A stretch of 64,000 bases of DNA from an uncultured Sphingomonadales bacterium (lineage in GTDB: Bacteria; Pseudomonadota; Alphaproteobacteria; Sphingomonadales; Govanellaceae): assembly GCA_964508185.1 (NCBI GenBank), contig CAZDSS010000002.1:6674-70673 (forward strand), read 5' to 3'. The notes beneath the pieces were generated by a model. That model made no database searches, had not been told where the DNA came from, and saw only the letters and a list, made by a program, of their open reading frames with translations. This document shows, in pieces, positions 2,978 through 37,290 of this stretch (position 1 is the stretch's first letter; each line of letters begins with the position of its first letter). Both the position numbers and the translations under genes were made by a program.

Positions 2978-3007
2978 ACTTTCATTCCTCACAAAAGATG
3001 GCCCGGC

Positions 3008-6359: not shown

Positions 6360-6387
6360 TTGAAATTTGTCTGGACAACCTTATAAG
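6360..6387 (+). promoter_or_regulatory. Putative sigma70-like promoter with embedded operator copy 2 (TTGTCTGGACAA at 6367-6378)
   Basis: TTGAAA (6360-6365), a 16-nt spacer, then TATAAG (6382-6387). The palindrome lies inside the spacer, directly upstream of the CitE-like gene. Confidence 0.55.
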
Positions 6388-6407
6388 CTGTGACCGGGAG
6401 TGAGGAA

Positions 6408-7746: not shown

Positions 7747-7758
7747 GGACCGCCTGAA

Positions 7759-10118: not shown

Positions 10119-10122
10119 GACC

Positions 10123-11214: not shown

Positions 11215-11215
11215 C

Positions 11216-11977: not shown

Positions 11978-12020
11978 GGCAATACTCCTTTTCTCAAATT
12001 GGCTCCCGGGAGACTGCCCG

Positions 12021-22344: not shown

Positions 22345-24729
22345 TCAGAACGCCTTGCGGACGATCACGCCCCATTCGGCCTTCGAGGGCGGCGTGATGC
22401 TGAAGGCGCGGACCGAATCGCCCGTCGCCGCAGCCGGCACGCCGAGATCGATATAGCGCATGATGCCGTCCGGCGTCTCGTTGCCGAGCACGTTCTTGCC
22501 GTAGGCGGTGACGCGCCAGCCGTTGTTGTCGGTCACGCCCGCCTGCAGGTTGACCTTGGTGGCGTCGCCGGTATGGGCCAGGTTGTGCACCTGGGCGTAG
22601 AAGCGGCTGCGATAGATCACGTCGATGCCGGAGAAGAACGCCCAACCGTTTCCGATCTCGTGATCGAAGCGCAGGCCGATGGCGCCGTTATGCTTGGATA
22701 CCAGCGGCGGACGCTGGCCGACGATGGACGCCGCCTCGCGGCAGCCCGGAAGGTCGAGATTGATGGCCGAGCCGGTCTTGCAGGCCGCGCCCAGCAGCAG
22801 GACCGCATGATCGGGCTCGACACCCTCGCGGATCTTGGCATCCAGATAGGTGTAGTTGAACTGCAGGGTGAACATGCGGTTGGCGAGCGGCAGCGCGCCT
22901 TCCACCTCGATCCCGCGGATCCGCGTCTTGCCGATATTGGCCTTGTAGGAGTCGATCAGGGTTTCGGTCACATAGGTGTTGGTCAGGACCTGGTTCTTGT
23001 AGTTCTGCCAGAAGGCCGAAACGTTCAGGTAGTCGAAGCCGAACTTCGAGGTCTTGAAGCCGATTTCGTAGTTGATGAGCTTCTCTTCGTCATAGGTGGT
23101 GGTCGGCGCGGTCAGCGGGTTGAAGCCGCCCGGCGAGTTGCCCTGGGAATACTGGGCATAGACCGACCAGTCGCGGGCGGGCGACCAGTTGACGGTGACG
23201 CGCGGCAGGGTCGCCTTGAACTTGGCGTTGCGCTCGCCAGCCGTGCCGACGATCTGGTCGGGGTTCGGGTACAGGAGCTCCGCCAGTTCCTCGTCGCTGA
23301 AGAGGTCGCCGGCGCGGTAGGTGACGCCGGTCGAGCGCACCTTGTCGATCTGGCGACGCAGCTCGGCGCCGATGGTGAGGTCCTCGGTCACGTCCAGATC
23401 GATGCCGCCGAAGAAGGCGAGGTTCTTGACCCGCGTGGCATCAGGCAGGATGTCGAGGCCCACTTCCGTCGCCTCCACATAGTCCGGATTGGGCTTCACG
23501 CGGTCGCGGCTGGTGAACACACCGACGCGCCAGCGGAAGCGATCCGCGCCGGGCGAGGTCAGGCGCCATTCATAGGTCTCGGTCTCGCGCTTCAGGCCGT
23601 CGGTGGTGTTGAACGGCGACTGGCTGCAGTCCTGGTTGCCGATCGGAATGAAGGCGCAGGCGCCGCGGAACAGGAAGAAGTTGCGGTCGTCGAAGGACTG
23701 GTCGGTGCCCACCACCTGGACCATGTCGCTGTAGCCCACCTGGAACGACGCCTCGTAGCCCGAGCCCATGATGTCCCAGCGAATGTCGCCGATGAAGCGG
23801 TCGGCGTTGCGGTAGAGGCCCGGCCGCATCAGGCGGTCCGTATTGATCCCGTAGGACTTGGGAACCTGCACCTCGCCGCAGTAGTACTGGCGGGTATCCA
23901 GAAAGCAGTTGTTCTCGGACGCGGGCTGCAGGCCGATGGCATAATGGCCGTCGTCGTCCTTCTGATGGATCCACTGCACGGAGGCGCTGATGTCCGGCGT
24001 CGGATCAAGGAACACGCCCGCCATGTACTGATGCGTCTTCTCGTCGCCAAGGCGCTCGCCCGGGATCAGCGCATTGTCGTACTGGCCGTTCACGTCATAG
24101 AACTTGAAACCCGCCTGAACGCCGAGCCAGGGGGTGACCGGCGTCGAAAGGAAAGCGCTGAATTCCTTGCGGTTGTAGTTGCCCACATTGGCCGTCACCT
24201 GCCCCTCGAGCTCCTCGCCCGGGCGCTTCAACACCACGTTGACGGCGCCGCTCAGGGTGCCGCGGCCGAAGACCGCCGACTGCGGGCCCTTGATGACCTC
24301 GACCCGCTCCACATTGGCGAGATCGAGCGACGAGAAGTCGCCGAGATAGGGCACGCCATTGAGGAACACGCCCACCTTGCCCTCGGCCATGAGGATGTTG
24401 GACGCGCCGCGGATCACCGGACGGTCGCCGTTGCGGCCGAAGGCCTCCTGGATCTGGAAGCCGGGGGTGAATTCGGCGATGTCCACGATGCTCTGCACCA
24501 GCCGGTCTTCCATGCGCAGGGAGTCGAAGGCGCTGACGGCGATCGGCACGTCCATCAGGCTTTCCTCGCGCTTGCGCGCCGTGACCACGATGTTCTCGAG
24601 GGTCATGGACTGGCTGGACGCCGTGGGCGCGGCGTCCTGCGCCTGGGCGTAGACGGGCGCCGCGAAGGCGACGGCAGCCGCGGACAGCATGAGGTTGAGG
24701 CGGCGAAGAGAATGCAGTCTGTGGGTCAT
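22345..24729 (-). CDS. TonB-dependent receptor
   Basis: 794 aa. Signal peptide ending AAPVYAQA. Plug region IVVTARKREESLMDVPIAVSAF and VEVIKGPQSAVFGRGTLSGAVNV. C-terminal Phe. Confidence 0.92.
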   Translation of the reverse strand: MTHRLHSLRRLNLMLSAAAVAFAAPVYAQAQDAAPTASSQSMTLENIVVTARKREESLMDVPIAVSAFDSLRMEDRLVQSIVDIAEFTPGFQIQEAFGRNGDRPVIRGASNILMAEGKVGVFLNGVPYLGDFSSLDLANVERVEVIKGPQSAVFGRGTLSGAVNVVLKRPGEELEGQVTANVGNYNRKEFSAFLSTPVTPWLGVQAGFKFYDVNGQYDNALIPGERLGDEKTHQYMAGVFLDPTPDISASVQWIHQKDDDGHYAIGLQPASENNCFLDTRQYYCGEVQVPKSYGINTDRLMRPGLYRNADRFIGDIRWDIMGSGYEASFQVGYSDMVQVVGTDQSFDDRNFFLFRGACAFIPIGNQDCSQSPFNTTDGLKRETETYEWRLTSPGADRFRWRVGVFTSRDRVKPNPDYVEATEVGLDILPDATRVKNLAFFGGIDLDVTEDLTIGAELRRQIDKVRSTGVTYRAGDLFSDEELAELLYPNPDQIVGTAGERNAKFKATLPRVTVNWSPARDWSVYAQYSQGNSPGGFNPLTAPTTTYDEEKLINYEIGFKTSKFGFDYLNVSAFWQNYKNQVLTNTYVTETLIDSYKANIGKTRIRGIEVEGALPLANRMFTLQFNYTYLDAKIREGVEPDHAVLLLGAACKTGSAINLDLPGCREAASIVGQRPPLVSKHNGAIGLRFDHEIGNGWAFFSGIDVIYRSRFYAQVHNLAHTGDATKVNLQAGVTDNNGWRVTAYGKNVLGNETPDGIMRYIDLGVPAAATGDSVRAFSITPPSKAEWGVIVRKAF

Positions 24730-24912: not shown

Positions 24913-26496
24913 TTAACGGCCCAGCCCGATGACGCCGGGATTCATCAGGCGACCGGGATCCAGGATCGCCTTGATGCCTTTGAGAAGCTCGGCCGGAACG
25001 GGGGACAGCGCCTCGAGATAGGGATAGGTCCGGCCGATCTGGTTCGATGCGGCCCCGAGCTTTCGGAAAAGCTGCACCGTCTCGAGGCGCAGCTGGTCTA
25101 CGAGCTTGCGGGCCGCGGGATTGGTCTCAGGCTCCGTCATCTTCTGCAGGAAGGCGGGCTCCGGCGCGCGGCGGTGGAGCGGCTGCCAGGAATCCTTCCA
25201 GTGGAACACGGGCTCGAAGCTGAAGGCATGGTTGGAGAGCGCCGAGGCGAGCCGGGTAAGCCACACGCCATGCGCCGCCATTTCGGAAAGATAGGGCGCG
25301 ATCATGGCGTCGAACGCCGCGATAAGATCGCGCGCGTCGGAATGCGCCACCTTGGCGTTCAGCGCCGCCCAGCGGCTGCCGTCGGCGCCGAGCACCGCAT
25401 TGAGATCCTGGAAAAGCGTCGCCCGCGCGACCCGCGGAATGGTGGGCGCGACCGGCCGCCCGCCGAGATCGGCGGCGATCCGCGCCGCGCGACGGAGGTC
25501 GTGCCGCACGGCGGCGGCGCAGCGCCCGGCCGCCGTCATGTGGAGGGAATAGTGCCCCGGCGGGATGAACTGCGTCCCCCCGCGGGCGAGGGACAGAAGC
25601 GCCGATGCCGCGCGCAGCGGTCCGCCCGCACGGCGCGCGACGGAGAGCGCCGTCCGCAGTTTTTCGCCGCCATCCGCCGCGATCGCCCCGGTGGAGACGG
25701 GATCGAGCACATAGATTTCTTCGGCGAGATCCGCCCGCGCAATGGCCGAAAGCGCATCGGCCGCATGCGCGAGATCGGCGAAGGCGAAGCTCAGATAGTC
25801 CTCATGCCGCGGCGCTTCGATGAGGCGCAGGCTTGCCGCCGTCTTGATGCCGAAGGCGCCGCCGTCATGGGTGAAAAGGCCGGTGAGATCGGGCCCGAAG
25901 CTGCGGAGGAACGGCTTCGCGCCCACGGCGAGCGCCCCCTGCCCCGTCCTCAGGATGCGCCCGTCGGCCAGCACCACTTCGAGCCCCAGCACCATCTCGG
26001 CGGCGGAGCCGTAGCGGGCCGAGCCGAAGAACAGCGCCCCGTGGGACAGCCCGCCGCCGACCGTGGCGCCCGCGCCGGAAAAGGTGCCGAAGAACGGCAG
26101 CCGCAGCCCCCGCGGCTTCAGCGCCGCCGCGATTTGGCGCCAGGTGACGCCCGCTTCCACCGTCATCACCATGTCCTGTTCCGATATGTGGATGATGCGG
26201 TCGAGGGCCGAAAGGTCGAAGGTCACGGACCTGTCCGTCGGCGGCGCATAGCCGCCCGTATAGCTGAGCCCGCCGCCCCGCGGCAGGACGGCATAGCCGC
26301 GGGACGTTGCGGCGGCGACAGCGGCGGCAAGGGCATCCCGGTCCTGCGGCCGCACCACGGCGGCCGGCAGCGCGCCCGTCACATGGAGATCGGCGGCGGC
26401 AAGCCGCCGGGCCTCCATGTCCGTGAGGACGGAGCCCTTGCCCGCGGCGCTTTCCAGCGCCGCCAGCAGGTCCTGGTCGGTCACATGGGTTTCCAC
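24913..26496 (-). CDS. FAD-binding (PCMH-type, GlcD-like) oxidoreductase, paralog of 144-1712
   Basis: Motifs AVLPRGGGLSYTGGY and VEAGVTW...LKPRGL. I trimmed the ORF-track 650-aa ORF to the in-frame GTG at 26496; the extension overlaps the real membrane gene. The GTG at 26484 is an alternative. Confidence 0.82.
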   Translation of the reverse strand: METHVTDQDLLAALESAAGKGSVLTDMEARRLAAADLHVTGALPAAVVRPQDRDALAAAVAAATSRGYAVLPRGGGLSYTGGYAPPTDRSVTFDLSALDRIIHISEQDMVMTVEAGVTWRQIAAALKPRGLRLPFFGTFSGAGATVGGGLSHGALFFGSARYGSAAEMVLGLEVVLADGRILRTGQGALAVGAKPFLRSFGPDLTGLFTHDGGAFGIKTAASLRLIEAPRHEDYLSFAFADLAHAADALSAIARADLAEEIYVLDPVSTGAIAADGGEKLRTALSVARRAGGPLRAASALLSLARGGTQFIPPGHYSLHMTAAGRCAAAVRHDLRRAARIAADLGGRPVAPTIPRVARATLFQDLNAVLGADGSRWAALNAKVAHSDARDLIAAFDAMIAPYLSEMAAHGVWLTRLASALSNHAFSFEPVFHWKDSWQPLHRRAPEPAFLQKMTEPETNPAARKLVDQLRLETVQLFRKLGAASNQIGRTYPYLEALSPVPAELLKGIKAILDPGRLMNPGVIGLGR

Positions 26497-27143
26497 AGGC
26501 TGACGACCACGATTCCGGCGATGAACACCCAAAGCAGGATCAGCACGCTGGTGGCCCGCCAATAGGTGCGGCGGATGATGGCGTTGGTCTCGTCCGTCGG
26601 CCCCTCCTTGGCCATTCTGGCCCAGGTGCGGAAGTGGGACAGAAGCGCGATGCGGATCCCGACGCCCGACGCCATCACCCCGGCAAAGAGGCCGAGCTTC
26701 CAGCGCAGGAACAGCGGCATGGGCCAGTCGCCGCCGATGAGCCCGAAGGCGAGCGCGATGAGGATGACCATCAGCACATAGCGCGAACCGCGGTCGAAGG
26801 TCTGGAGCTTCTTGCCCACGGGCGTCTTGCGCAGGCGGTGCGTCACCTCCACAAAGGCGAGCCACAGGGCGGCAATGATGCCGGCGGCGATGGCCACGGT
26901 CTCGCCCCCGGGGAACCAGCCGTAAAGGGCGGCGATCGCCGTCCCCAGCCCCGCCTGCAGGATGAGGGCGTAGCGCACATGCTGGTCCACCTTCATGACA
27001 TGGTCCATGAGGCGCGAGCGGTCCGGGAACGGCAGCTCGTCATGATAGCAGACATAGCGGTAGGTGCTGTTGATGACCAGCTCGGACCCGAGCCAGTAGC
27101 CGAGCACGGTGATATGGGCGGCGAGCAGCCAGGAAATGATCAT
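26481..27143 (-). CDS. Polytopic membrane protein of unknown function (paralog family M, copy 2)
   Basis: 220 aa, about 6 TM segments. Motifs H-ITVLGY-WLGSE and KVDQHVR. The ATG overlaps the stop of the upstream family-S gene (ATGA at 27140-27143). Confidence 0.8.
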   Translation of the reverse strand: MIISWLLAAHITVLGYWLGSELVINSTYRYVCYHDELPFPDRSRLMDHVMKVDQHVRYALILQAGLGTAIAALYGWFPGGETVAIAAGIIAALWLAFVEVTHRLRKTPVGKKLQTFDRGSRYVLMVILIALAFGLIGGDWPMPLFLRWKLGLFAGVMASGVGIRIALLSHFRTWARMAKEGPTDETNAIIRRTYWRATSVLILLWVFIAGIVVVSLWKPM

Positions 27144-27892
27144 CGCGCGTCTCCCGTGGCGTCGTAAGCGGTGAGTTCGTAGGCGGTCATCATGTAGCCG
27201 CCGACGGTGGCCTTCAGCAGCACGTAATCACCATCGGCCGTGCACCAGAGATCATAGGGCGGATAGGCTTCGGGCAGCCCCGGCACGTCCACCATGCGGA
27301 AATGGAGGGCGTCGAACCGTCCCGCCGCCACGGTGAGCTTGGTCGGGCCCACATACTGGATCGCGAGATCGGTGCGGAAAAGAAGCGGCCCCGTCGCCCC
27401 GCGGTGGTCTGGGGACGACAGCAGGATGTCCCGGATCACCTGGACGCCTGGGCCTTGAGAGAGGTCGTAGAGGGAGAGAAGAAACCCGTCATTGACCATG
27501 GCATGGTTGCCGAAGGCGACCAGAGGCTTGTCGAGCGCCATCGTCTGGGTGACGCGCCCTTCCGCCGTGGTGAAGGCCTCGCACTCGGCCAGATCATCGG
27601 CAAAGCGGAACCAGCCCGAGCCGCGGAAAGCCCCGCCCACCGCGATGCGCACGAAGCCCTCGAGCGGCCGGTTGTCGGGGCCGAGGCGCAAGCTCACGTC
27701 GCGCACCACGGCGGGGGCGTCATCGATCTCGCCGTGGGCGGCGATCACCCGCGAGCCGTCCTGATGGATGTCCATGCGGAACTGCTCACGCCCGCGCTCG
27801 GCGCCCTTCCGTTCGGGCTTGTCGCTCGTATAGCGGATATAGCCCGTGATGCTGCGGCGAACGCCGCCGGTCGCTTGCCTGTTCGCCATCAT
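27140..27892 (-). CDS. Cytoplasmic protein of unknown function (paralog family S, copy 1)
   Basis: 250 aa with no signal peptide. AGGAGGGGGA lies upstream of the ATG. Collinear with 36580-37290: DGSR, GxGWxRF, FGxH, SSxxHxGxxGP, TVxAGxF, LWC, GGYxxTxYEL. Confidence 0.8.
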   Translation of the reverse strand: MMANRQATGGVRRSITGYIRYTSDKPERKGAERGREQFRMDIHQDGSRVIAAHGEIDDAPAVVRDVSLRLGPDNRPLEGFVRIAVGGAFRGSGWFRFADDLAECEAFTTAEGRVTQTMALDKPLVAFGNHAMVNDGFLLSLYDLSQGPGVQVIRDILLSSPDHRGATGPLLFRTDLAIQYVGPTKLTVAAGRFDALHFRMVDVPGLPEAYPPYDLWCTADGDYVLLKATVGGYMMTAYELTAYDATGDAR

Positions 27893-27923
27893 CTCCCCCT
27901 CCTAGAACCTGCTCCCCCCTGCC

Positions 27924-29057
27924 TCATTTCCAGTTGGACTTGTCGCGCAGGTAGCGGGCTGCATCCTGCAGGTCCTCCGGCTGGTAATCGGCGAAGAGAT
28001 TGGGCGAGTAGCGCGGCACATAGCCGTTGAGCACGTCCATGTAGAGCGCGGGATGAAGCGTGGGCTGGCGATGCCGGGCGCGGAAGGCGCCGATGGGAAT
28101 GCGCGCGGTGACCAGCGTCTCGTTCGGCGACTTCGCGATCGCCATCGCCTCGCCGTCGGGACCATAGATGGCGGAGCCGCCCGCATTGCTGTCCTCGAAG
28201 AAGGGCGAGCCGGGCGAGATCGCCTGGTTGGCGACGGCCACATAGACGCCGTTGTAAAGCGCGGTCGCCGCCACATCGAGCGGGCTGAAGCCGCCCGTCG
28301 CCGTGCGCAGGATCACTTCCGCCCCCTTGATGGCCATGGCGCGGAACAGTTCGGGCTCCCGCTGCACGGAACTCATGGCGATGTTGCCGAGGGGCGTCTG
28401 CACCACGGGAATGACGGCGTCCTGCCCGTACATTTCCACGTAACGGTCGTAGACGTCGTAGATGGTGGTGGTGAAAAGCTCGATCTGGCCGCCGAACGCG
28501 CCCTTGATGTTCCGCGCCTTCCATTCGCGCGCGAGAATCTTGCCGTCGGGCCCGATCATGGTGGTGATCGACAGCACATGGCCGGGCCAGTCCTTGTCGC
28601 GGGCATAGGAGCCGAACACCAGATAGATGCCGCGCTCCCGCGCCTTCCTGGCGAGCGCCTCCGTCTCCTCGCCGGGGATCTCGATCGCGACCTTCAGGAT
28701 GTCCTTCCGCGTCCATCCCGCGCCGAAGCCGGTGATGGGGAATTCGTGGAAGAACAGCATGTCCGGCCCCATGCCGAAGCCGAATGCCGCGTCGATGAGG
28801 TTCAGCATATGCTGCAGATTGGCCTTGCGGCTCGCATCCACCCGGCCGAGATCGACGGGAATCGAGCGGGACTGGGCGACGCCCAGGGTCCACATTTCCT
28901 TGGCGAGCGGCACGGTCGGATATTTCCCGTCCGCCCCGATCTCCACAGCCTTGCCCGGCGTCGCCGCCCCGGCGATGGAGGGCGCAAGACCCAGGGCCGC
29001 CGTCAGGCCAAGCCCGCCGGCAGCGCCCAGAAGCCCGCGGCGCGTGAGGGCGCTCAT
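27924..29057 (-). CDS. Tat-signal-bearing carbon-nitrogen hydrolase (nitrilase superfamily) fold protein lacking the catalytic cysteine
   Basis: 377 aa. Twin-arginine signal MSALTRRGLLGAAGGLGLTAALGLAPSIAGAA. CN-hydrolase blocks FFHEFP, REWKARN, GNIAMSSVQREPELFRAMAIKGAEVIL and YNGVYVAVANQA...GGSAIYGPDGE. The translated protein contains no Cys residue. Confidence 0.8.
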   Translation of the reverse strand: MSALTRRGLLGAAGGLGLTAALGLAPSIAGAATPGKAVEIGADGKYPTVPLAKEMWTLGVAQSRSIPVDLGRVDASRKANLQHMLNLIDAAFGFGMGPDMLFFHEFPITGFGAGWTRKDILKVAIEIPGEETEALARKARERGIYLVFGSYARDKDWPGHVLSITTMIGPDGKILAREWKARNIKGAFGGQIELFTTTIYDVYDRYVEMYGQDAVIPVVQTPLGNIAMSSVQREPELFRAMAIKGAEVILRTATGGFSPLDVAATALYNGVYVAVANQAISPGSPFFEDSNAGGSAIYGPDGEAMAIAKSPNETLVTARIPIGAFRARHRQPTLHPALYMDVLNGYVPRYSPNLFADYQPEDLQDAARYLRDKSNWK

Positions 29058-29216
29058 TTCGCACCTCCGCGGCGTTCGACCCGGCGACCATGGGATTCGG
29101 CAACCGCCGCGCGGGCGACAGAACTGGAAATTCTCATCTGGGCTCCCCTTTGTGCTTGATATGATCGGGCGGAACCGTTCCGGCCCCGGTGCCTTCCCCG
29201 CGCTCCGCCCCGCCCC

Positions 29217-29259
29217 ACTTGTCTGGACAAATTTTCACGTTAATCGGGGGCTGTCAAGC
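29217..29259 (-). promoter_or_regulatory. Putative promoter plus operator for the CN-hydrolase/S/M/FAD-oxidase operon (operator copy 4, TTGTCTGGACAA at 29219-29230)
   Basis: Same architecture as 5578-5620: minus-strand TTGACA (29257-29252), a 17-nt spacer with TG, AAATTT, then the palindrome. 34/43 nt are identical to copy 1. Confidence 0.6.
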
Positions 29260-29408
29260 GGCTTCGGACTGTTTGCCGCACGCAGAAAGGGCGCAGCCCG
29301 GCACCGTCGCCATGCGTCAGGATCGCATGTCGGCGGCCCGGGCAGCGCCCTGGCGGATTGTCGTCGGATTGTGTCCGAGCCTCACTTGCGCGCTTGCTTC
29401 ATCGCGCC

Positions 29409-29933
29409 TCAGATGGCGCCGCGCGGCTTGAAGCTGTAGTAGCTCGGATCGTCATAGGCCTTCCAGTCGCGGGACACGCGCACCTCGTTGATGACCGTGC
29501 GCTGGAACAGGCGGCCCTTGCGGTACCAGTGCCAGGTGCGGTTCTTGGCCTCGCGGTCCTCGGCCACGGTGATCATCTCGTAATAGCGGAAGTCCGGCTC
29601 ATGGGCGCGGGTCCAGCCGACCATGATCGTGCGGTTGGTGGGATCGAGGCTCACCGAGCCCGTCCAGCCGTCGATGAGATCGTTCTTGATCCACACCCGG
29701 TCGCCCTTGAAGACGCCGTCGAAATACCGGATCTCCTGCGTGCCGTCGGCCCAGGTGTAGATGTTGGTCTGGGACAGGCGCGCTTCGCCGTCGGGGCCGT
29801 CGAACAGACGGCAGACGAGGCGCGACTTGTGCCGGTCGATGATGTTCTGGTCGGCGTCCAGATGGACATATTCGCCTTCCCAGACGCCCGCCTGGTCGGC
29901 AACGAGCGGCATCTTTTCGCTGATGATCTTCAT
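29409..29933 (-). CDS. Hypothetical protein, beta-rich, no signal peptide
   Basis: 174 aa from the ATG at 29933, preceded by GGAGGTG. The ORF-track start at 30041 has no RBS. I recognise no family. Confidence 0.65.
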   Translation of the reverse strand: MKIISEKMPLVADQAGVWEGEYVHLDADQNIIDRHKSRLVCRLFDGPDGEARLSQTNIYTWADGTQEIRYFDGVFKGDRVWIKNDLIDGWTGSVSLDPTNRTIMVGWTRAHEPDFRYYEMITVAEDREAKNRTWHWYRKGRLFQRTVINEVRVSRDWKAYDDPSYYSFKPRGAI

Positions 29934-30039
29934 GCTGAGCACCTCCGTTATCGTTTTCCGAAGATTGCCCAAGGAGGGGTGTTCTTGGCTAACAACTTTT
30001 TGTCTTTGTCTCCATCCATCGGTTGTATATAAGGATGCC

Positions 30040-30945
30040 ATGGAATCCCGTCACATCCGTCATTTCCTTGCGGCCTACGACGCCGGCACCTTCGCCGCCG
30101 CCGCCGAGCGCCTGGGCCTCAGCCAGCAGGCGGTGAGCAAGAGCATCCTTCGCCTTGAAAGCCAGCTCGGCGTGCGTCTCTTCGAGCGCGACGGGCGGCG
30201 CATCCGCCCCACCGAATATGCCGAGCTGTTCCTGCCCCATGCCCGCACCATGGCGGCGGAGGCGGAGCGATTCCGCGCCGGCCTCGATGACATGCTGGGC
30301 GGGCGGCGCGGCCTGGTGCGTGTGGGCGTGGGGCCGAGCGCCGCGGCCCACATGGTGGCCGCCGCCGCCGACCATCTGGTGCGCGAACGGCCGGGGCTTC
30401 GCATGCAGGTGCTGGCCGGGATCTACGAGGACATGATCGAGGATCTGGTGTGCGGCAAGCTCGACCTGTTCGTCGCCGTGCGCCTCGTGGAGCGGCGCTC
30501 CCCCCTGATCCGGGAAGAAAAGCTCTGCGACATCGATTATGTGGTGGTGGCGGGGCCGGACCATCCGCTGGCCGATCTCGAGGACATCACCCTTGAACGG
30601 CTTGTCCAGGAGCGCTGGATATCCGGCGCCAATCTCGGCGTCATCGAGGAAGCGATCGAGAACAGCTTCGCCGCCGAGGGTCTCGCCCTCCCCCGGCCGG
30701 AGATCGAGACCACGTCCCTGCTTTTCACCCTCGCCATGCTCGACCGCGGGCGGCATCTCAGCATCCTGCCCGAAATGCTGGTGAGCCACGAAATCGCTTC
30801 CGGCCGCCTCGTGAAGCTCAGGCTGCGCGCCGCGCCCTGGCGGCGGCCGCTGATCGTGGCGACGCGCGCGCGGGGCGTGAAATCTCCCCTCGTCGAGATG
30901 CTGATCGCGCAGTTCAGAAATCATCTCGCAACGGCACAAGGATAA
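30040..30945 (+). CDS. LysR-family transcriptional regulator
   Basis: 301 aa. N-terminal HTH MESRHIRHFLAAYDAGTFAAAAERLGLSQQAVSKSILRLESQLGVRLFER. Divergent from 29409-29933. Confidence 0.9.
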   Translation: MESRHIRHFLAAYDAGTFAAAAERLGLSQQAVSKSILRLESQLGVRLFERDGRRIRPTEYAELFLPHARTMAAEAERFRAGLDDMLGGRRGLVRVGVGPSAAAHMVAAAADHLVRERPGLRMQVLAGIYEDMIEDLVCGKLDLFVAVRLVERRSPLIREEKLCDIDYVVVAGPDHPLADLEDITLERLVQERWISGANLGVIEEAIENSFAAEGLALPRPEIETTSLLFTLAMLDRGRHLSILPEMLVSHEIASGRLVKLRLRAAPWRRPLIVATRARGVKSPLVEMLIAQFRNHLATAQG

Positions 30946-31151
30946 GAGCCGGAGCGAAAGCGTCGGAAATACTTACATGTCCGGCCTCACCACCCGGCCA
31001 AGGGACTGGCAGGGCTTGGCGTTCGGATTCGGCATGAAAATTGCGTTAAAGTGGGCGCCCATGAATTCACCTTTTGCCAGGCGGCCGGCAGAGCCGGTGA
31101 CGTCCTTCGGTGGATTTCCGCGGCCTGCCTGTCGCCCGATGGAGACAGGAC

Positions 31152-31739
31152 ATGTTTCGTATCGTTGTTTATGCGCTCGCCGCCCTCGCGGCGGGATCGC
31201 TCGGCGGCACGCAGGCCGCGCCCATCACATTCACGGCAAGCCTCAGTGGCGATGCCGAGAATCCGCCGATTGTGTCACCGGGCACCGGCTCCGCCACCGT
31301 CATCTTTGATCCCGACGCCCACAGCATGAGCGTCAATGTCAGCTTCGACAATCTGACGGGAATGACCACCGTAGCCCATATCCACGGCCCCGTGACGGAG
31401 CCCGGCGGCAACGCTGGCGTGGCAACCCAGGTGCCGAGCTTCGTCGATTTTCCGGCGAACGTGACGAGCGGCAGCTACACCCGCGACTTCGACACCCTGG
31501 ACCCTGCCACCTACAACCCCGCCTTCGTCACCGCCAATGGCGGCAGCGTGGAAGAAGCGGAAGCGGCGTTTTTCGCCATGCTGCTGGCGGGCAGTGCCTA
31601 TCTCAACATCCACACCACGAATTTCCCGGCGGGCGAGATTCGCGGTTTCCTCATCGCACAGACGGTCGCGGCGCCGCCTGCCGGCTTCATTCTCGCCGCG
31701 GGCGCCCTGTTGCTCACCGGGATGCGGCGGCGGGCGTGA
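31152..31739 (+). CDS. CHRD-domain protein with signal peptide and PEP-CTERM/VPLPA-CTERM-like C-terminal anchor
   Basis: 195 aa from the ATG at 31152 (GGAGA upstream). Signal peptide MFRIVVYALAALAAGSLGGTQA. CHRD-like blocks LSGDAENPP...GTGSATV, HIHGP and YLNIHT..FP.GEIRG. The C-terminus is AAPPAGFILAAGALLLTGMRRRA. Confidence 0.75.
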   Translation: MFRIVVYALAALAAGSLGGTQAAPITFTASLSGDAENPPIVSPGTGSATVIFDPDAHSMSVNVSFDNLTGMTTVAHIHGPVTEPGGNAGVATQVPSFVDFPANVTSGSYTRDFDTLDPATYNPAFVTANGGSVEEAEAAFFAMLLAGSAYLNIHTTNFPAGEIRGFLIAQTVAAPPAGFILAAGALLLTGMRRRA

Positions 31740-31745
31740 AGGGTT

Positions 31746-33212
31746 TTATTGCCACTTCCAGCGGCTGCGGGTTTCAAGATACTGGTCGAGGCCCGTCTTC
31801 TTCAGGATGTCGCCCAAGGCCCATTCCGCCTCGCCGAGCACTTCGGCAAGCTTCACGGACCGGTGGCGGCCGTCGGATATCAGAAGCTCGCCGTCCACGT
31901 AGACTTCGCGCACCGCCCAGGGATCGTTGGAATAGACGAGGTTGGAGAGCGCCGTCTGCCACGGCGCGATGGGCAGGCGGCTTGCGTCGATGACGATGAC
32001 GTCGGCGCGCTTGCCCGTTTCCAGGGACCCGATCTCGTCTTCCATGTGAAGCGCCGCGGCGCCGCCGCGGGTCATGAGCTCGAGCGCAAGCTCCGCCCCG
32101 CCGAAGGACGCCCGTTCCAGCCGCTGCTTCTGGAACAGCATGGCCATCTTCATGGTCTCCCACACGTTCTGGCTGTTGTTGGTGGAAGCACCATCGACGC
32201 CAAGGCCGACGCGCACGCCCTTGTCGAGAAGCTCCGCAAGCCGCGCGACCCCCGCCGCGTAATAGGCGTTTGCCACGGGATTGTGGGAGATCCCCGTCTG
32301 CCGTTCGGCAAGGCAGGCGATCTCGTCGTCATCAAGCCAGATGGTATGGGCGAGAAGCGTCTTTGGCCCCAGCACGCCGAGGCGCTCGAGCTCCGAGACG
32401 CTGCCATGGCCGAAGCGGGCGCGGCTTTCGTCCCGCTCGTCCTGGGAGCTTGCCACATGCATGGTGAAATGGCTGCCCGTGCGCACCGCCAGGGCATGCA
32501 TGGCCTGGATCATCTCCGGCGTGCAGCGGAGAACGCCGAGCGCTTCCGGCACCACCGACAGGCGGTCGGAATTGTAATCCCTCTGCAAGCGCAGAAGCTC
32601 GTCCGTCGCCTGTTCCGGGGTTTCGCGGAAGGCCTCGGGGATGAACTGGGCCGGGCTGCTGTCGTCGGCGCTGTCCATGACGATGCGCGACACGACGGCG
32701 CGCATGCCGAGGGTCTGCAGCGCCGTCATCACGCCGTCCATGGATTCCCGGCGCGGCGTGCAGATCTCGCCGCTCGCCGTGGTGGTGACGCCCGTGGACA
32801 GCAGCTCGAGGCCGGACAGGAAGGTCCCCGCCGCCGCCGCGCGCGCGCTCATGCTGTCGAGGACCGGCCACATGCCCTTGGCGAACCACACTTCGAGCGG
32901 CATCTCGTCATAGATGCCGCGCAGGACGCCGTTCCCGAGATGGGTATGGCAGTTGACGAGGCCCGGCATGATGATGTGGCGCTCGAACGAACGGCGGGTC
33001 ACGTTGGGGGGAACGCTCCCCAGTTCCGACATGGGCCCCACACGGTGGATGCGCCCGTCCTTCAGCCACACGAAACCCCTGGCGAACGCCCGGCGCTCGT
33101 CGTCCATGGTAATGACCACGGCATCGGTCAGGATCACTTCCGGTCCCTTGGGGGTGATCCGGTCGCTGCCCGGCCTTGCGGCCCGTGCCGCATCCTCTTG
33201 CCTGCCTGTCAT
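31746..33212 (-). CDS. Amidohydrolase (TRZ/ATZ / SsnA-like metal-dependent hydrolase or deaminase)
   Basis: 488 aa. Motifs PGLVNCHTHLGN and later H/D ligands (HVAS, HTIWL, VGLGVDG). Confidence 0.85.
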   Translation of the reverse strand: MTGRQEDAARAARPGSDRITPKGPEVILTDAVVITMDDERRAFARGFVWLKDGRIHRVGPMSELGSVPPNVTRRSFERHIIMPGLVNCHTHLGNGVLRGIYDEMPLEVWFAKGMWPVLDSMSARAAAAGTFLSGLELLSTGVTTTASGEICTPRRESMDGVMTALQTLGMRAVVSRIVMDSADDSSPAQFIPEAFRETPEQATDELLRLQRDYNSDRLSVVPEALGVLRCTPEMIQAMHALAVRTGSHFTMHVASSQDERDESRARFGHGSVSELERLGVLGPKTLLAHTIWLDDDEIACLAERQTGISHNPVANAYYAAGVARLAELLDKGVRVGLGVDGASTNNSQNVWETMKMAMLFQKQRLERASFGGAELALELMTRGGAAALHMEDEIGSLETGKRADVIVIDASRLPIAPWQTALSNLVYSNDPWAVREVYVDGELLISDGRHRSVKLAEVLGEAEWALGDILKKTGLDQYLETRSRWKWQ

Positions 33213-33322
33213 GTACTACTCCCTGGAAACGCGGACGGCACCGGACGCGGCCGGCGCCATGCCGTTCTTGGATCCACTATCTGAAATTCCCCGGTCATTC
33301 GGCCACCAACTTCCCGTCTTTT

Positions 33323-34612
33323 TCAGCAACCATCCGTCACGGCGCGCGTCAGGCGGCGGAAGGCCGGATAGGCGCCCGCAAGGAGCAGGAAGGATCCCGC
33401 GGCCGATCCCGCGAAGGTCGCGGACAGCGCAAGATCGATGGCCGAGCCGCCGGGCCAGAAATCGTTGAGCGAGCCCACCGCGAGCGGCCCGAAGGTCGCC
33501 GAGACGAGCCCGACGAGGGCGGTATAAAGGGCCGTCATGCGGCCGCGGAGCTCGTTCGGCGTGATGTCGGCGATGGCGGCGAGCACCGCGACCGCGGGAT
33601 AATTGGCGAAGACGCCGGACAGCGCGAACAGCGCCATGCACCATTTCCCGTCCGGCATCAGGGGCGCGAGCGCGCCGGGCACGAGACAGGCGAGCGAGCC
33701 CCAGAGGCATACGAGCCAGGACGCATGGGCGAAGCCGCGGCGGGTGAGCCAGTCGGTGACCCAGCCGACGGAGACGGAGCCGAAGACGCCGACCACGCCC
33801 GCAATCGCGCCGAAGACCAGCGCCACGTCCTGCGCCGCCCAGGCGTATTTGCGCATGAACAGGGCGGGCATGAAGGCAAGCTGACCGTACATGGCGGCGA
33901 AAGCGAAGGCGACGCCGCCGAAGAGCGCGGCGAAGACCCAGCCGCGGCGGAGAACGAAACGCACCGCCGCCCCGTGGGACACCGGCTCCTCGCTCAGTTC
34001 CTGCCGCACCGGCTCGCGAAAGCCCATGAGCAGGATGGGGATCAGAAGCCCGAGCCCGCCGAGCAGCATCATCGCCGCCTGCCAGTCGGCCACACCGAGA
34101 GGGCCTGCCATCAGGCTGCCGACGGCGACCGCCGCCGCCGCCGCGAAATAGGCGCCCGAGGTACCAAGGGCCGTGCCCGCGACGAAGACGCCGTAGCCCG
34201 TCGCCCGCCGCTCTGGCGGGAACATGTCGGCGATGAGTGACGTGGATCCCGGCTGCACGATGGATTGCGCCGCGCCGGTAACGATGCGGCCGACCACGAT
34301 GCTCATGTAAGAAAAGACGCCGAAGGCCGTGCCCGCGCTCCAGATCAGGGCGCAGACCGCAATGAGGCGCAGGCGATGGAAACGGTCCACGAGCCAGCCC
34401 ATGAACGGCGCAGAGAGGGTATAGGGTATGGCGAAGCACGCCCCGGTGATGAGCCCGATCGCCGTGTCGCTGAGGGCGAGATCGGCGCGCATGGGCTCCA
34501 CGAAAAGGCTGATGCCGATCCGGTGCAGGAAGCCGATGGCATAGGCGAAGGTGAGCGCAAGCGTCATGCCCCAGGCCGCGCGCGTCGATGGCCATTGTGT
34601 CGCCGGGATCAT
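33323..34612 (-). CDS. MFS transporter
   Basis: 429 aa, about 12 TM segments. MFS loop motif MGWLVDRFHRLR. Confidence 0.85.
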   Translation of the reverse strand: MIPATQWPSTRAAWGMTLALTFAYAIGFLHRIGISLFVEPMRADLALSDTAIGLITGACFAIPYTLSAPFMGWLVDRFHRLRLIAVCALIWSAGTAFGVFSYMSIVVGRIVTGAAQSIVQPGSTSLIADMFPPERRATGYGVFVAGTALGTSGAYFAAAAAVAVGSLMAGPLGVADWQAAMMLLGGLGLLIPILLMGFREPVRQELSEEPVSHGAAVRFVLRRGWVFAALFGGVAFAFAAMYGQLAFMPALFMRKYAWAAQDVALVFGAIAGVVGVFGSVSVGWVTDWLTRRGFAHASWLVCLWGSLACLVPGALAPLMPDGKWCMALFALSGVFANYPAVAVLAAIADITPNELRGRMTALYTALVGLVSATFGPLAVGSLNDFWPGGSAIDLALSATFAGSAAGSFLLLAGAYPAFRRLTRAVTDGC

Positions 34613-35919
34613 GCACTCAACTCCTGCACCACAAGAGGCCGCCCCACCCGGCGGAGCACCAGAAGGCCCGCAATGAGCAGCAGGGCGGCGACGCCGAAGA
34701 CGCCAAAGCGCTGCTCCCCCGTGATCACGGTGGAGAGCGCCACAAAAAGCGGCGCCATGAAGGATGACGCCCGCCCGATCATCACGTAAAGCCCGAAGGC
34801 TTCGCCGAGGGCGTCGGGATCGGCGAGAGAGACGAGAAGCGACCGGCTCGCCGCCATGATGACGCCGAGCATGCCGCAGGCGGCGACCGCCAGGGCGAGA
34901 TAGGCGTAGTCGGCGGGCCCCGTGAAGCCCCCGCCAGCGCCGCGCGCCGTCGCGATCACCAGCGCAAGCGCCCCCGTGATGGCGAGCAGGCCGGAAAGCG
35001 CCAGCACCAGCGTGCGGCGCGTGCCGAACAGCCCTTCAAGCCGCCCGGCGACGAGCCCTGCCGCAGCGCCGGCGATGAGGCCGAGGAAACCGAACACCGT
35101 CACCTCCGCCGTGCCCCAGCCGAGACGAGTCGCGGCGACGATGGAGATGAATGAGAAAAGGCACATGGTGCCGTCCCAGTAGAGCATGCGCGCAAGCAGA
35201 AAGGTGCGAAGGCCCTTCTGCGCCATGAACCGGGACCAGAGGCCCGAGAGCTCGCGAAAGCCCCGGGCAACCGCCGCGCCGAGCGACGCCTCGCTCCGCG
35301 CCGCGGGCTGCGGGCAGAACAGAAGGCACGGCAGAATGAAAAGGACGAGCCACAAGCCGCTTCCTGCGGAAAGCGCCCGCGCCGCCACATCATCCCCCAC
35401 CCCCGCCGCCGTCGCGCCGTAGCCGAGGCCGAGATAGAGAAGGCTCGCGACGAAGCCGAGCCCCACGCCAAGGCCGCTCAATTTTCCGGTCTCCGCCGCG
35501 GGCACAAGCCCGGGCAGCAGGCTGTCCGTATGTATGCGCGACCATTCGATCCCGAGCTGGGCGAGGCCGACGGACGCCAGCACCCACAGCACATGCCCCG
35601 GCGTGGCGGAGGCGAACCACAGGCTCAGAAGCGCCGCACAGGCAAGGGCGACGCTCATCACCAGCCACGGCCGCCGCGTGCCGGTGGCGTCCGCCAGCGC
35701 CCCGGCGACGGGCGCCGTCAGGATCAGGGTGAGGCTCGTCGCCGACAGGCCATAGCCCCACCAGGCGGTGCCGCGCACCGGGTCCGCGGCCACGACGCTC
35801 ACGAAGAAGGGCGGAAAGGCGAGCGACAGCACGAAGGAGAAGAACGGCTCCCGCGCGAAGTCCGCAAGCGCCCAGGACAGGCGGGCGCGGCCCGCTTTCT
35901 CAGACAAACTTGGCCACAC
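34609..35919 (-). CDS. MFS transporter, UMF1/Atg22-like subfamily
   Basis: 436 aa. N-terminus SWALADFAREPFFSFV is typical of UMF1-type MFS. The GTG at 35919 is taken from the ORF track; the TTG at 35907 is an alternative. It overlaps the upstream membrane gene. Confidence 0.78.
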   Translation of the reverse strand: MWPSLSEKAGRARLSWALADFAREPFFSFVLSLAFPPFFVSVVAADPVRGTAWWGYGLSATSLTLILTAPVAGALADATGTRRPWLVMSVALACAALLSLWFASATPGHVLWVLASVGLAQLGIEWSRIHTDSLLPGLVPAAETGKLSGLGVGLGFVASLLYLGLGYGATAAGVGDDVAARALSAGSGLWLVLFILPCLLFCPQPAARSEASLGAAVARGFRELSGLWSRFMAQKGLRTFLLARMLYWDGTMCLFSFISIVAATRLGWGTAEVTVFGFLGLIAGAAAGLVAGRLEGLFGTRRTLVLALSGLLAITGALALVIATARGAGGGFTGPADYAYLALAVAACGMLGVIMAASRSLLVSLADPDALGEAFGLYVMIGRASSFMAPLFVALSTVITGEQRFGVFGVAALLLIAGLLVLRRVGRPLVVQELSA

Positions 35920-36583
35920 CGAGCACTACCATCACACCGGACAGGGACCACATGCCGAAGGCGATCCAGCGCGCCCGGGCGAGGGAATCCGTGAAGAGGG
36001 CGTCCACCTCGGGGCTTCGCCCCTCGGTCGCGAGGCGCCGGAAGCCTTCGGCCCAGGCGCGCATGATGTGACGCAGGATGAGGCCCACCACGATCATCAG
36101 GCCAAAGACCAGAATCTTCGCCGCGATGAAGGTATGCGGGATCGGGTCGTCGGTCGCGAGCGACCACAGGCCGATGCCGATGAGCACCGGCGCCATCGCC
36201 ATGCGGATCCGCGTGTCGATCAGGCGGATGCGGTCGCCAGCAGGCGAGCCCATCCTGCGGTAGCCGTTGATGTTGAGGACGAGCCAGGCGATGCCGAGGA
36301 TCCAGACCGCGATCATGAACGGCCCCGTGGGCGACCACAGGCCGTAGAAGGATGCAAGCTGCAGGCCCACGGGCAGAAGCAGGGTGAACGCCATGCGCGG
36401 CATCAGGTCGATGCGGAACGCCGCCTGCAGGAAGCGCCGCCGCTCGTCCATGGGCAATTCCGGATTGGCGACGTAGCGGGAGGTGACGAACACCCCCCAG
36501 TCCGCGCCGAGCCAGTAGGCGAACAGCAGCACATGCACGATCACGAAGACGGTATGGACGGTCATGGGTTGGCACCCCGTCAC
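35900..36583 (-). CDS. Polytopic membrane protein of unknown function (paralog family M, copy 3)
   Basis: 227 aa. Motifs H-VLLFAY-WLGAD and RIDLMPR. The GTG at 36583 overlaps the stop of the upstream family-S gene (GTGA). The ATG at 36565 is an alternative. Confidence 0.8.
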   Translation of the reverse strand: MTGCQPMTVHTVFVIVHVLLFAYWLGADWGVFVTSRYVANPELPMDERRRFLQAAFRIDLMPRMAFTLLLPVGLQLASFYGLWSPTGPFMIAVWILGIAWLVLNINGYRRMGSPAGDRIRLIDTRIRMAMAPVLIGIGLWSLATDDPIPHTFIAAKILVFGLMIVVGLILRHIMRAWAEGFRRLATEGRSPEVDALFTDSLARARWIAFGMWSLSGVMVVLGVAKFV

Positions 36584-37290
36584 ATGGAAAGTTCAACGAG
36601 CTCGTAGGTGGTGGCGAGATAGCCGCCGACCCGGATCTTCACGAAGATGAAGTCGTCGGGCAGGCACCACAGCTCTTCCGGCGGATGCTCCTTGGGCAGC
36701 GCGCCCGCGAGATGGAACAGATAGCTGTCCACCTCGAAGGTGCCGGCGCGCACCGTGATGGTCTCGCGCCCGCGATATTCGATGCCGAAGCGGATGGGCA
36801 GGATCATGGGCCCACCGCTGCCGTCATGCTCCAGCGAACTCAGGTAGGACCGCTCCATCATCTGGACGCCGCCCTTCTTGTGGTCGTAGGCGGCAAGATG
36901 CCAGATGTCGCAGGACAGGGGGTGAGGTCCGAAGGTCTCGATGGGCGACGGCAGGCTGATGCGCTGGTCGATGCGGCCGAGATCGCGGTTCCAGCTCTGG
37001 AGCTCGATCTCCGTGCCGTTGAAGCGGTACCAGCCGGTGCCCTGCAGGCTGCCGTCCTTGATGAGACGGATATAGCTGTCGATGGGCCGGAAATTGCGGT
37101 CCACCGAATAGACGATGTCCTTGGACAGCGCCCGGTCGAAGATTTCGCATGTGGCGTGCAGCGTGCGGCTGCCGTCGGGGGCGACGCTCACCGAGAAGCG
37201 CTCGGTGCCGCGCAGGCCGACCTCGTCCCCGATGGCCTCGATGACGCCCGCGTAATGGCGGCGTCCCTGCCCTTGCGATCGTGATGACAT
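36580..37290 (-). CDS. Cytoplasmic protein of unknown function (paralog family S, copy 2)
   Basis: 236 aa from the ATG at 37290, preceded by GAGGGAGGG. Collinear with 27140-27892. Confidence 0.8.
   Translation of the reverse strand: MSSRSQGQGRRHYAGVIEAIGDEVGLRGTERFSVSVAPDGSRTLHATCEIFDRALSKDIVYSVDRNFRPIDSYIRLIKDGSLQGTGWYRFNGTEIELQSWNRDLGRIDQRISLPSPIETFGPHPLSCDIWHLAAYDHKKGGVQMMERSYLSSLEHDGSGGPMILPIRFGIEYRGRETITVRAGTFEVDSYLFHLAGALPKEHPPEELWCLPDDFIFVKIRVGGYLATTYELVELSM

Follow-up and report, generated by a model that had tools for sequence, protein, structure and literature searches.

A recurrent gene pair for a predicted cytoplasmic β-barrel and a six-helix membrane protein beside TonB-dependent receptors in a Sphingomonadales bacterium

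What do the two proteins of a small, recurrent gene pair contribute to the nutrient loci in which they are encoded? Loci with TonB-dependent receptors (TBDRs) dominate nutrient scavenging in sphingomonads, xanthomonads, caulobacters and marine Proteobacteria, and their inner-membrane step is often unassigned. The window analysed here is a 64,000-nucleotide stretch of DNA from an uncultured Sphingomonadales bacterium (GCA_964508185.1, contig CAZDSS010000002.1, positions 6,674 to 70,673 of the forward strand). At two places in the window, a gene for a soluble protein, S, is followed at once by a gene for a polytopic membrane protein, M; a third M copy stands alone, and each of the three M genes heads, or lies inside, a catabolic cluster. 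An earlier reading made from the letters alone (the sequence-only reading) proposed an inner-membrane component of TonB-dependent uptake or processing, such as a transporter, a membrane-tethered enzyme or a redox module. The S–M module is real, widespread and unnamed, and among these options the transporter is ranked first, as a tentative reading.

Paralogous S and M genes in the window

The five genes are as follows, with minus and plus denoting the strand.

27140..27892, minus: S1, 250 amino acids (aa), predicted cytoplasmic open β-barrel with a DUF3108/EipB-like fold
26481..27143, minus: M1, 220 aa, predicted six-transmembrane (six-TM) inner-membrane protein of a CopD/DUF2269-like superfamily
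36580..37290 (or to 37308), minus: S2, paralogue of S1, 236–242 aa
35900..36583, minus: M2, paralogue of M1 and M3; probable start ATG at 36565, giving 221 aa
5647..6327, plus: M3, orphan M paralogue heading a C5-dicarboxylate operon of itaconate type

The window has a G+C content of 66%, and DNA of this composition yields many long false open reading frames (ORFs). Nevertheless, chance resemblance or spurious ORFs have practically no likelihood as an explanation of the five genes. The G+C content at third codon positions (GC3) is 0.80–0.91, of the coding type, in all five ORFs at the coordinates first assigned to them; the pairwise E-values range from 2e-7 to 3e-45, and the counts of homologues and the confident AlphaFold2 models described below likewise refute it.

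Judged from their sequences, S1 and S2, as well as M1, M2 and M3, are true paralogues. In pairwise comparison, S1 and S2 share 34% identity across 240 residues (E 3e-45), and the collinear blocks picked out by the sequence-only reading (DGSR, GxGWxRF, FGxH, SSxxHxGxxGP, TVxAGxF, LWC and GGYxxTxYEL) are all present in both copies. The M proteins share 28% identity between M1 and M2 (E 2e-21), 28% between M3 and M2 (E 6e-27) and 22% between M3 and M1 (E 2e-7); all these values are significant, and the relatedness claimed for the copies of both proteins is borne out. A scan of the window with profile hidden Markov models (HMMs) returns exactly three M genes and two S genes, and M3 is indeed an orphan, with no S adjoining it. 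As had also been stated, S is devoid of a signal peptide, showing neither an N-terminal hydrophobic stretch nor a twin-arginine translocation (Tat) signal.

Within each pair, the genes are closely joined. The stop codon of S1 overlaps the start codon of M1 (ATGA), as expected from the sequence-only reading, and the stop codon of M1 overlaps the GTG start of an FAD oxidase gene (GTGA), which that reading did not contain. Because both junctions overlap, S1, M1 and the oxidase form a translationally coupled trio. In the case of S2 and M2, the GTGA overlap formerly claimed is possible only; an ATG located 18 nucleotides (nt) downstream provides an alternative start for M2, which is favoured because the homologues measure 221–222 aa. 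The S2–M2 junction is therefore tight, and its overlap is not certain.

Conservation of the S–M pair

The sequence-only reading named the absence of S–M adjacency from other genomes as a possible refutation; the adjacency is, in fact, conserved. An S-centred scan of 185,579 species genomes with an alignment of the S1 subfamily returned 80 loci, derived from Sphingomonadales, Hyphomonas, Stenotrophomonas, Steroidobacter, Chromatiales and others among the Alpha- and Gammaproteobacteria. S is followed directly by M in 44 of these 80 loci, and a FAD_binding_4 oxidase follows M in 41 of those 44. In a further 18 of the 80, M is situated elsewhere in the locus, at a distance of 0.2–9.2 kb, usually 3–5 kb upstream and on the same strand. 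M is absent from five loci with flanks of at least 8 kb on each side and from 13 loci with short flanks. The broad S alignment contains no stretch conserved enough for such a scan, and S2-type loci are sampled only via an M-centred scan of metagenomes, in which GC3-based gene calling is uninformative for low-G+C loci.

Across all sources, genomes and metagenomes combined, 58 independent adjacent S/M pairs exist outside the window, with S preceding M in 56. The distance between the stop codon of S and the first profile-aligned residue of M has a median of 6 nt and a range of 0–22 nt. Furthermore, the subfamilies pair one to one, S1-type only with M1-type and S2-type only with M2-type, and the pairwise S–S and M–M identities correlate with r = 0.96. 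In the M-centred metagenome scan, M2 orthologues are always located in TBDR–S2–M2–MFS–MFS clusters, and S2 orthologues always precede M2 orthologues.

The adjacency persists through the divergence of 34% (S) and 28% (M) identity and through a reversal of gene order. A third and more distant S/M type, in which M precedes S, is found on eight sphingomonad plasmids and in locus L085. This type (~43% and 25% identity) is encoded on NZ_KM017071.1 (pJE1) at 17827-19236, on AP027332.1 and on six Novosphingobium megaplasmids. The surrounding plasmid cluster codes for LeuCD-like dehydratases, an HMG-CoA lyase, a CaiB-type CoA-transferase, an isochorismatase and two polysaccharide deacetylases, together with a cupin, an FAD oxidase, two MFS transporters and a TBDR. 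A literature search found no S–M pairing, with DUF3108 and DUF2269 mentioned just in passing, and a literature search for pJE1 gave no result.

The notion of S and M as a linked unit thus holds for the adjacency itself, but not for every locus, as M often stands alone or in M–M pairs and S also occurs without M. Most distant M genes have no S and are single or arranged as M–M pairs. In gammaproteobacterial loci, S1 orthologues adjoin an MFS transporter gene instead, with a stop/start overlap in L067.

Several arrangements of the separated genes are recorded here as observations. In L067 (4224-5534) and in the Chromatiales/Steroidobacter-type loci L048–L080, a gene of the Redoxin/peroxiredoxin family lies before M. 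In these gammaproteobacterial loci, M and S are parted by an MFS–ETFα–ETFβ block on the opposite strand and a rhodanese gene, and S is directly followed by an MFS transporter gene and then an aminotransferase gene. Five tandem S paralogues occupy 7170-10981 in L086 and 5761-9572 in L087, with no M; a SAM methyltransferase and an MFS gene follow, and both arrays adjoin an sdhCDAB operon.

Folds and relatives of the S and M proteins

No Pfam or NCBIfam model matches the S and M proteins of the window at E ≤1 (matches to Sorbin and AimP are noise), PDB sequence searches with single sequences and with profiles give no match for either protein, and the NCBI label of both is 'hypothetical protein'. 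None of the profile searches that could have placed S or M in a characterised family did so. The statement of the sequence-only reading that neither family is recognisable is accordingly upheld at the level of Pfam, NCBIfam and PDB sequences, and is to be qualified by a distant kinship of S with DUF3108/EipB and of M with CopD/DUF2269/SirB/HemJ. The superfamilies are known but functionally obscure, and the families themselves have neither a model nor a name.

S has more than 1000 homologues in a database clustered at 90%. Its AlphaFold2 model, based on a 55-sequence alignment, reaches a pLDDT of 94.5 and a pTM of 0.90 and contains 15 β-strands and one helix. The top Foldseek match is EipB/DUF1849 (6ntr), with an E-value of 7e-7 to 5e-6 and a TM-score of 0.50–0.61 over ~260 columns, in which the 14-strand β-spiral fold is recovered. 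Further matches include BDI_3050, BF2203 (3fzx) and PA1994 (2h1t, TM-score 0.4–0.5). For 3fzx, a YmcC-like barrel of the DUF3108 family, the E-value is 7.9e-4, but the TM-score is just 0.30–0.34, and S is without an export signal. The DUF3108 HMM (PF11306) does not match S1 or S2 at E ≤1 and gives marginal matches to 32 of the 55 relatives (best E 2e-5); UniRef names some S orthologues 'DUF3108 domain-containing'. On the basis of the model, S is a distant DUF3108/EipB-like, LolA-like cytoplasmic open β-barrel.

EipB is a cup-shaped β-spiral of 14 strands, with a lumen of ligand size and without a known biochemical activity (bioRxiv 10.1101/551135). In common with EipB, DUF3108 and PA1994 (DUF1089), S is composed of a curved antiparallel sheet around a plug helix, and PA1994 is likewise cytoplasmic. 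Unlike S, EipB and BF2203 are exported, and the conserved disulfide of EipB is not present in S, whose 55-sequence alignment contains no invariant Cys. The identity of S to EipB, DUF3108 and PA1994 is 9–14%, and these proteins have no known biochemical function or membrane partner gene. The weak Foldseek matches of S also comprise LprG (3mh8). In mycobacteria, LprG and Rv1410c (P55) are encoded by a two-gene operon, in which a LolA-like ligand-holding barrel accompanies a membrane transporter. LprG, however, is an extracytoplasmic lipoprotein, and its partner is an MFS protein acting in lipid export without homology to M.

The properties of S also bear on an unlikely explanation, in which S would be a soluble catabolic enzyme without a cofactor, which might isomerise, decarboxylate or hydrolyse an intermediate of the C5-dicarboxylate type, M would have a separate accessory task (such as supplying a metal or cofactor, exporting a toxic intermediate, or sensing), and the adjacency would reflect a shared pathway and no physical partnership. 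The polar residues E36, H130, D135, R33, R48, Q116 and Y238 are invariant or nearly so in the 55-sequence alignment, and S1 orthologues remain 55–76% identical across Alpha- and Gammaproteobacteria, both of which would suit an enzyme. The independence of the two genes points in the same direction: M is mostly without S, the five tandem S paralogues accompany a methyltransferase and no M, and in operons of the type MaoC, acyl-CoA dehydrogenase (ACAD), CoA-transferase (CoAT), CoAT and S1 (L039, L073 and L077), which lack M, S1 is translationally coupled to the CoA-transferase. Set against this are the adjacency of 0–22 nt maintained through deep paralogy and in both gene orders, the strict one-to-one pairing, and the position of non-adjacent M genes, which are still usually within 3–5 kb of S. 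In addition, S has no structural match to a known enzyme fold. The Foldseek matches to acetoacetate decarboxylase (probability 0.16) and to HLA/MHC proteins were rejected, with probabilities ≤0.16 and TM-scores <0.2.

In the case of M, the AlphaFold2 model of M2 (pLDDT 90.3) shows six long helices, in agreement with the approximately six TM segments first counted. Foldseek against the PDB returns no match at E ≤0.001, the best E-value being 0.39; the matches to G-protein-coupled receptors, rhodopsin and designed helical bundles are generic and not meaningful. An exhaustive profile search gives 989 representatives of 50%-identity clusters at E ≤1e-3 and 681 at E ≤1e-10, nearly all of ~220 aa. 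In a set of 141 sequences, made up of the three window M proteins and 138 representatives that are 22–42% identical to M2, the residues H17, W24, G26, D28, R48, D59, R63, G73, W100 and K156 are 90–100% conserved. The mean number of Lys and Arg residues across the family is 10.8 in the three long loops and 1.1 elsewhere, and this distribution indicates an N-out/C-out topology with three Arg-rich cytoplasmic loops.

Marginal Pfam matches among 143 M relatives belong mainly to one superfamily and are distributed over DUF2269 (15), SirB (10), UPF0093/HemJ (7), CopD (5), DUF4149 (4) and DUF2214 (2). The window M proteins are not matched by DUF2269 (PF10027), whose best E-values are 5e-5 among the 15 of 143 relatives and 3e-7 among 8 of 48, and one homologue, P0203, carries a precomputed PF10027 assignment; these matches support a kinship with DUF2269 at the superfamily level only. 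The CopD HMM (PF05425) does not match M1–M3 at E ≤1 and gives marginal matches to 1 of 48 and to 5 of 143 relatives, the latter with E-values of 0.005 or weaker. For HemJ/UPF0093 (PF03653), the best E-value among the seven relatives is 0.047, and the TM1 His is invariant in M. In hhalign comparisons, the M profile aligns H17/W24/G26 with H154/W161/G163 of E. coli YebZ (E 0.013, probability 3%) and the TM5 WLxxK motif with E. coli YchQ (E 0.1), both matches being too weak as proof of homology, with only the motif register informative. Taken at sequence level, M appears as a distant, divergent offshoot of the CopD/DUF2269/SirB/HemJ superfamily.

The layout resembles that of CopC–CopD and YobA–YebZ, in which the gene for a helical inner-membrane protein from this superfamily lies beside that for the small soluble β-rich partner with which the protein works. 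YebZ is a demonstrated copper importer of E. coli, and the H154A substitution abolishes uptake (PMC11923076). The TM1 motif His-x6-Trp-x-Gly of M stands in register with His154-Trp161-Gly163 of YebZ, and truncated and extended forms around a helical core are common to both. However, CopD has eight TM helices and two conserved, periplasm-proximal His residues (H135 and H154 in YebZ; PMC11923076), whereas M has six helices and one such His, with no equivalent of H135. Likewise, CopC is periplasmic, cupredoxin-like and copper-binding, whereas S is cytoplasmic, a 15-strand open barrel and without a metal motif. The setting of S–M is organic-nutrient catabolism with TBDRs, not copper homeostasis, and no CopC-type gene is present among the neighbours of M1–M3 (S, FAD oxidase, MFS transporters, lyase). 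Copper supply by M was rejected as a role, as CopC, Sco and cuproenzyme neighbours are lacking.

As regards the other relatives, DUF2269 (PF10027) and SirB (PF04247) provide the commonest marginal matches, but are shorter (~4 TM) and themselves of no known function. HemJ/PgdH2 (UPF0093) and PuuD resemble M in being small and polytopic, and they belong to its superfamily or lie close to it. PuuD acts on an N-heterocycle, is encoded beside dedicated transporters, feeds cytosolic enzymes and is oriented N-out/C-out (PMC4562309). Its link to M is second-hand, through a comparison of DUF989 with DUF2269 at E 0.15 (PMC4562309). PuuD consists of an eight-TM DUF989 domain and a C-terminal CXXCH cytochrome c, whereas M, with ~220 aa and six helices, possesses no extra domain and no conserved Cys; moreover, the gene contexts of M differ from those of both HemJ and PuuD.

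M is probably a dimer, since M–M pairs and an M–M fusion occur. Tandem or divergent M–M gene pairs are frequent (L110, L113–L117, L119, L120, L123–L125, L127, L128, L132 and L134), and one protein of 456 aa, P0298, is an M–M fusion.

Gene context and the proposed transport role

In locus A, the gene order is a divergent LysR regulator, a CN-hydrolase, S1, M1, a FAD_binding_4/GlcD-like oxidase, a TBDR, a YCII protein and a Zn-dependent protein of the alcohol-dehydrogenase family. The following members surround S1 and M1.

29761..30945, plus: divergent LysR-type regulator (HTH_1 + LysR_substrate), true start probably ~30040; position kept in L003–L018
27924..29057, minus: CN-hydrolase (nitrilase superfamily), first gene of the locus A operon; Pfam CN_hydrolase E 7e-22
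24913..26484, minus: FAD_binding_4/FAD-oxidase_C flavoprotein (GlcD-like), Pfam E 3e-34; no signal peptide
22345..24729, minus: TBDR with plug and barrel domains; 61–66% orthologues in the same cluster of sphingomonads

The N-terminus of the CN-hydrolase, MSALTRRGLLGAAGGLGLTAALGLAPSIAGA, is a Tat signal, and the orthologue in L003 shares the RR motif; the enzyme is therefore placed in the periplasm. Such an exported CN-hydrolase is unusual, the nitrilase superfamily being normally cytoplasmic. Signal peptides are absent from S1, the FAD oxidase and the amidohydrolase of locus B.

Locus B contains, in order, a LysR regulator, a TBDR, S2, M2, two MFS transporters and an amidohydrolase, and the genes at 31746..35919 form the rest of the operon after M2. 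The order of this remainder is repeated in the metagenome loci L089–L098.

39752..40684, minus: LysR-type regulator beside locus B; LysR upstream of the TBDR in L091–L098
37364..39709, minus: TBDR upstream of S2; kept upstream of S2–M2 in L091–L099
34609-35919 and 33323-34612, minus: MFS transporters
31746-33212, minus: TRZ/ATZ / guanine-deaminase-like amidohydrolase

A G+C-rich inverted repeat, GCGGGCCGCGCCCGC, at 35880-35900 (minus) could be an intra-operon hairpin; it directly follows the stop codon of M2 and either precedes the annotated start of the first MFS gene or overlaps it.

Locus C spans 5647-14572 on the plus strand and 144-5503 on the minus strand, with two MmgE/PrpD genes near.

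6390..11214, plus: genes downstream of M3, coding for a RipC/Ccl-like lyase, a RipB/Ich-like hydratase, an acyl-CoA dehydrogenase and two family III CoA-transferases
144..5503, minus: divergent operon by M3, with a TBDR (3008-5503), an MFS transporter (1709-2992) and a second FAD_binding_4 oxidase (144-1712)

Judged by its enzymes, locus C looks like an itaconate/mesaconate-type C5-dicarboxylate cluster, although all NCBIfam scores of these enzymes lie under the equivalog cut-offs and the real substrate may differ. Its composition resembles that of the Pseudomonas aeruginosa PA0878-PA0883 cluster. Loci A and C probably belong to one pathway, as they are fused in other genomes. M3 orthologues (67–72%) are situated 1–2 kb upstream of S1–M1 in Stenotrophomonas and Pelagerythrobacter, the Stenotrophomonas order being MFS ... 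M3–glyoxalase–S1–M1–oxidase; in the MaoC–ACAD–CoAT–CoAT–S1 operons, enzymes of the locus C type lie directly before S1. In Stenotrophomonas (L027, 1077-12950), M3 and S1–M1–oxidase are located in one operon, and in the window they are 20 kb apart; L001 and L035–L040 bear on the same observation. The Stenotrophomonas operon additionally carries an isochorismatase gene, two polysaccharide-deacetylase genes, ETF-QO, a PEP-mutase/ICL-like gene and the glyoxalase gene.

The operon context described in the sequence-only reading, with TBDR, hydrolase, FAD oxidase or MFS genes around both pairs, is found as described. Each of loci A, B and C combines a TBDR and a regulator (LysR or GntR) with hydrolases or oxidases, which is the make-up of a TonB-dependent nutrient-utilisation locus, and related loci are alike; the association with TBDRs is real and recurs in the catabolic loci of other genomes.

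Within this context, the reading given most weight, while still short of probable, is that S–M comprises a CopD-like dimeric permease and, in the cytoplasm, a partner by which the substrate is bound or converted. In locus A, an N-containing organic acid or amide would cross the outer membrane via the TBDR and be trimmed in the periplasm by the Tat-exported CN-hydrolase. The substrate may then pass through M1 along a conserved polar stripe formed by His17, Trp24 and Asp28 of TM1, Trp100 of TM3 and Lys156 of TM5, with Arg48, Asp59 and Arg63 forming a gate or a docking platform for S on the cytoplasmic face. S1 would receive the substrate at this face, bind or convert it, and hand it to the co-translated FAD oxidase. 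The permease would operate as a homo- or heterodimer of 12 helices, S2–M2 would play an equivalent role in locus B, and M3 would act without S for the itaconate-type operon. The neighbouring enzymes suggest itaconate-type C5-dicarboxylates, cyclic amides or ureides, and citrate-amide compounds as candidate substrates.

Transport is favoured, first, because locus A combines a TBDR, a Tat-exported hydrolase and cytoplasmic enzymes with M1 as the only inner-membrane protein; a hydropathy scan of the locus showed no protein with at least seven TM helices, on which this assignment of M1 is based. The Tat export of the CN-hydrolase thereby sharpens the operon logic of the locus. Similarly, other polytopic proteins are scarce near M in the S1-centred loci, where another ORF with at least seven TM helices lies within 5 kb of M for only 15 of 61 M genes. 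A second group of arguments derives from M itself: CopD/YebZ, the sole relative characterised in transport, imports copper and its essential His matches that of M; the M–M pairs and fusion represent a dimer architecture typical of small secondary carriers; the conserved polar residues span the membrane; and the N-out/C-out topology turns the conserved face to the cytoplasmic S. Finally, the tight S–M coupling (58 pairs, one-to-one subfamilies, r = 0.96), the position of S beside either M or another inner-membrane transporter in both arrangements, and the fold of S, one of the cup-shaped ligand-holding barrels of the LolA/EipB/PA1994 class, also favour a role in transport.

The neighbours of M comprise α/β-hydrolases, short-chain dehydrogenases (SDRs), TBDRs, FAD_binding_2 flavoproteins (some of them Tat-exported) and cytochromes c. 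The main rival to transport is a redox role, which is rather unlikely, though less so than a free-standing enzymatic role of S. In this explanation, M would be a dimeric haem-b protein like HemJ, analogous to SdhC/SdhD or TcuB, or would itself be a HemJ/PuuD-type membrane oxidase for an N-heterocycle. The two protomers would each contribute His17 as a haem ligand, and a propionate would be bound by Lys156, with electrons passing from the flavoprotein through M to quinone or a periplasmic cytochrome c; in either form, S would be a cytoplasmic adaptor or an enzyme handling a labile oxidation product. Such a role accords with the translational coupling of S1, M1 and the FAD_binding_4 gene and the retention of the oxidase in 41 of the 44 S1–M1 loci. 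Unrelated FAD_binding_2 flavoprotein genes stand directly before M or M–M in L109–L111, L124, L127 and L128, two M genes flank a FAD_binding_4 gene in L116, and cytochrome c genes are found in the M cluster of L170. Of the 40 M genes in the M-centred sample, however, just 8 lie within 1.5 kb of a detectable flavoprotein, the operon of locus B has no flavoprotein, and the FAD_binding_2 proteins of L084 and L170 are Tat-signalled and accompanied by their own cytochromes c, so that M is not needed.

Also in favour of a redox role, HemJ is a b-type haem membrane protein forming a stable dimer (PMC13564367), and the marginal UPF0093/HemJ matches fall among the M relatives; PuuD, oriented like M, has conserved cytosolic loops, lies by transporters and is distantly similar to DUF2269 (PMC4562309). 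Furthermore, C–N hydrolases of cyclic amides and ureides abound near M, including TRZ/ATZ deaminase, hydantoinase A/B, isochorismatase, PuuE-type deacetylases and nitrilase-type enzymes. Against it, M possesses neither a CXXCH motif nor a second conserved His, and locus A would be left without an inner-membrane transporter. The narrower idea that M anchors only FAD_binding_4 oxidases was downgraded, as the oxidase is absent from locus B and from most distant M loci.

The clusters around M in L170 (1596-9806) and L084 (5042-10491) look like periplasmic oxidation modules beside it: they encode TBDRs, hydrolases with signal peptides, periplasmic cytochromes c and FAD_binding_2 flavoproteins with a Tat signal.

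Several points weigh against a transport role of S–M. Locus B already holds two MFS transporters beside M2, which would also suit a redox function, and about half of the M-centred loci have another polytopic protein near; a like redundancy of transporters was an argument that PuuD is no transporter (PMC4562309). The homology to CopD is weak, as the hhalign values for YebZ indicate, while the remaining relatives of characterised function (HemJ and, at a greater distance, PuuD) are oxidoreductases, and M recurs beside flavoproteins of two unrelated families. The identity of S between classes and its occurrence without M, including the five tandem copies, form a pattern as compatible with an ordinary soluble enzyme as with the partner of a transporter. 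To our knowledge, there is little precedent for an importer whose binding partner is cytoplasmic.

In a broader form, and a shade more tentatively than transport by a CopD-like permease, S–M may constitute a new two-component class of the inner membrane, in which a dimeric six-helix M of the CopD superfamily transports an organic substrate and not a metal, or oxidises this substrate at the membrane, with an obligate cytoplasmic LolA/EipB-like partner. Such a class would have a CopC–CopD-type layout with the soluble partner in the cytoplasm and would provide the first biochemical role for the DUF3108/EipB fold and for the DUF2269-like branch. As a permease, M would represent a new carrier family and take the CopD superfamily beyond metals to organic compounds; as a haem-b anchor, it would represent a new type of link between the respiratory chain and soluble flavoprotein dehydrogenases. 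In both cases, two large groups, the LolA-like DUF3108/EipB barrels and the DUF2269/SirB membrane proteins, would gain a first lead to their function, and the strict pairing, together with culturable candidate hosts (Sphingobium chungbukense DJ77, Hyphomonas neptunium HNE_1455 and Stenotrophomonas), makes the question testable.

Two further genes lie close to the S–M loci with no evident link to them: a CHRD-domain protein is encoded at 31110-31739 (plus), between loci A and B, and a COX1-type haem-copper oxidase subunit I at 41633-43264 (plus), just past locus B.

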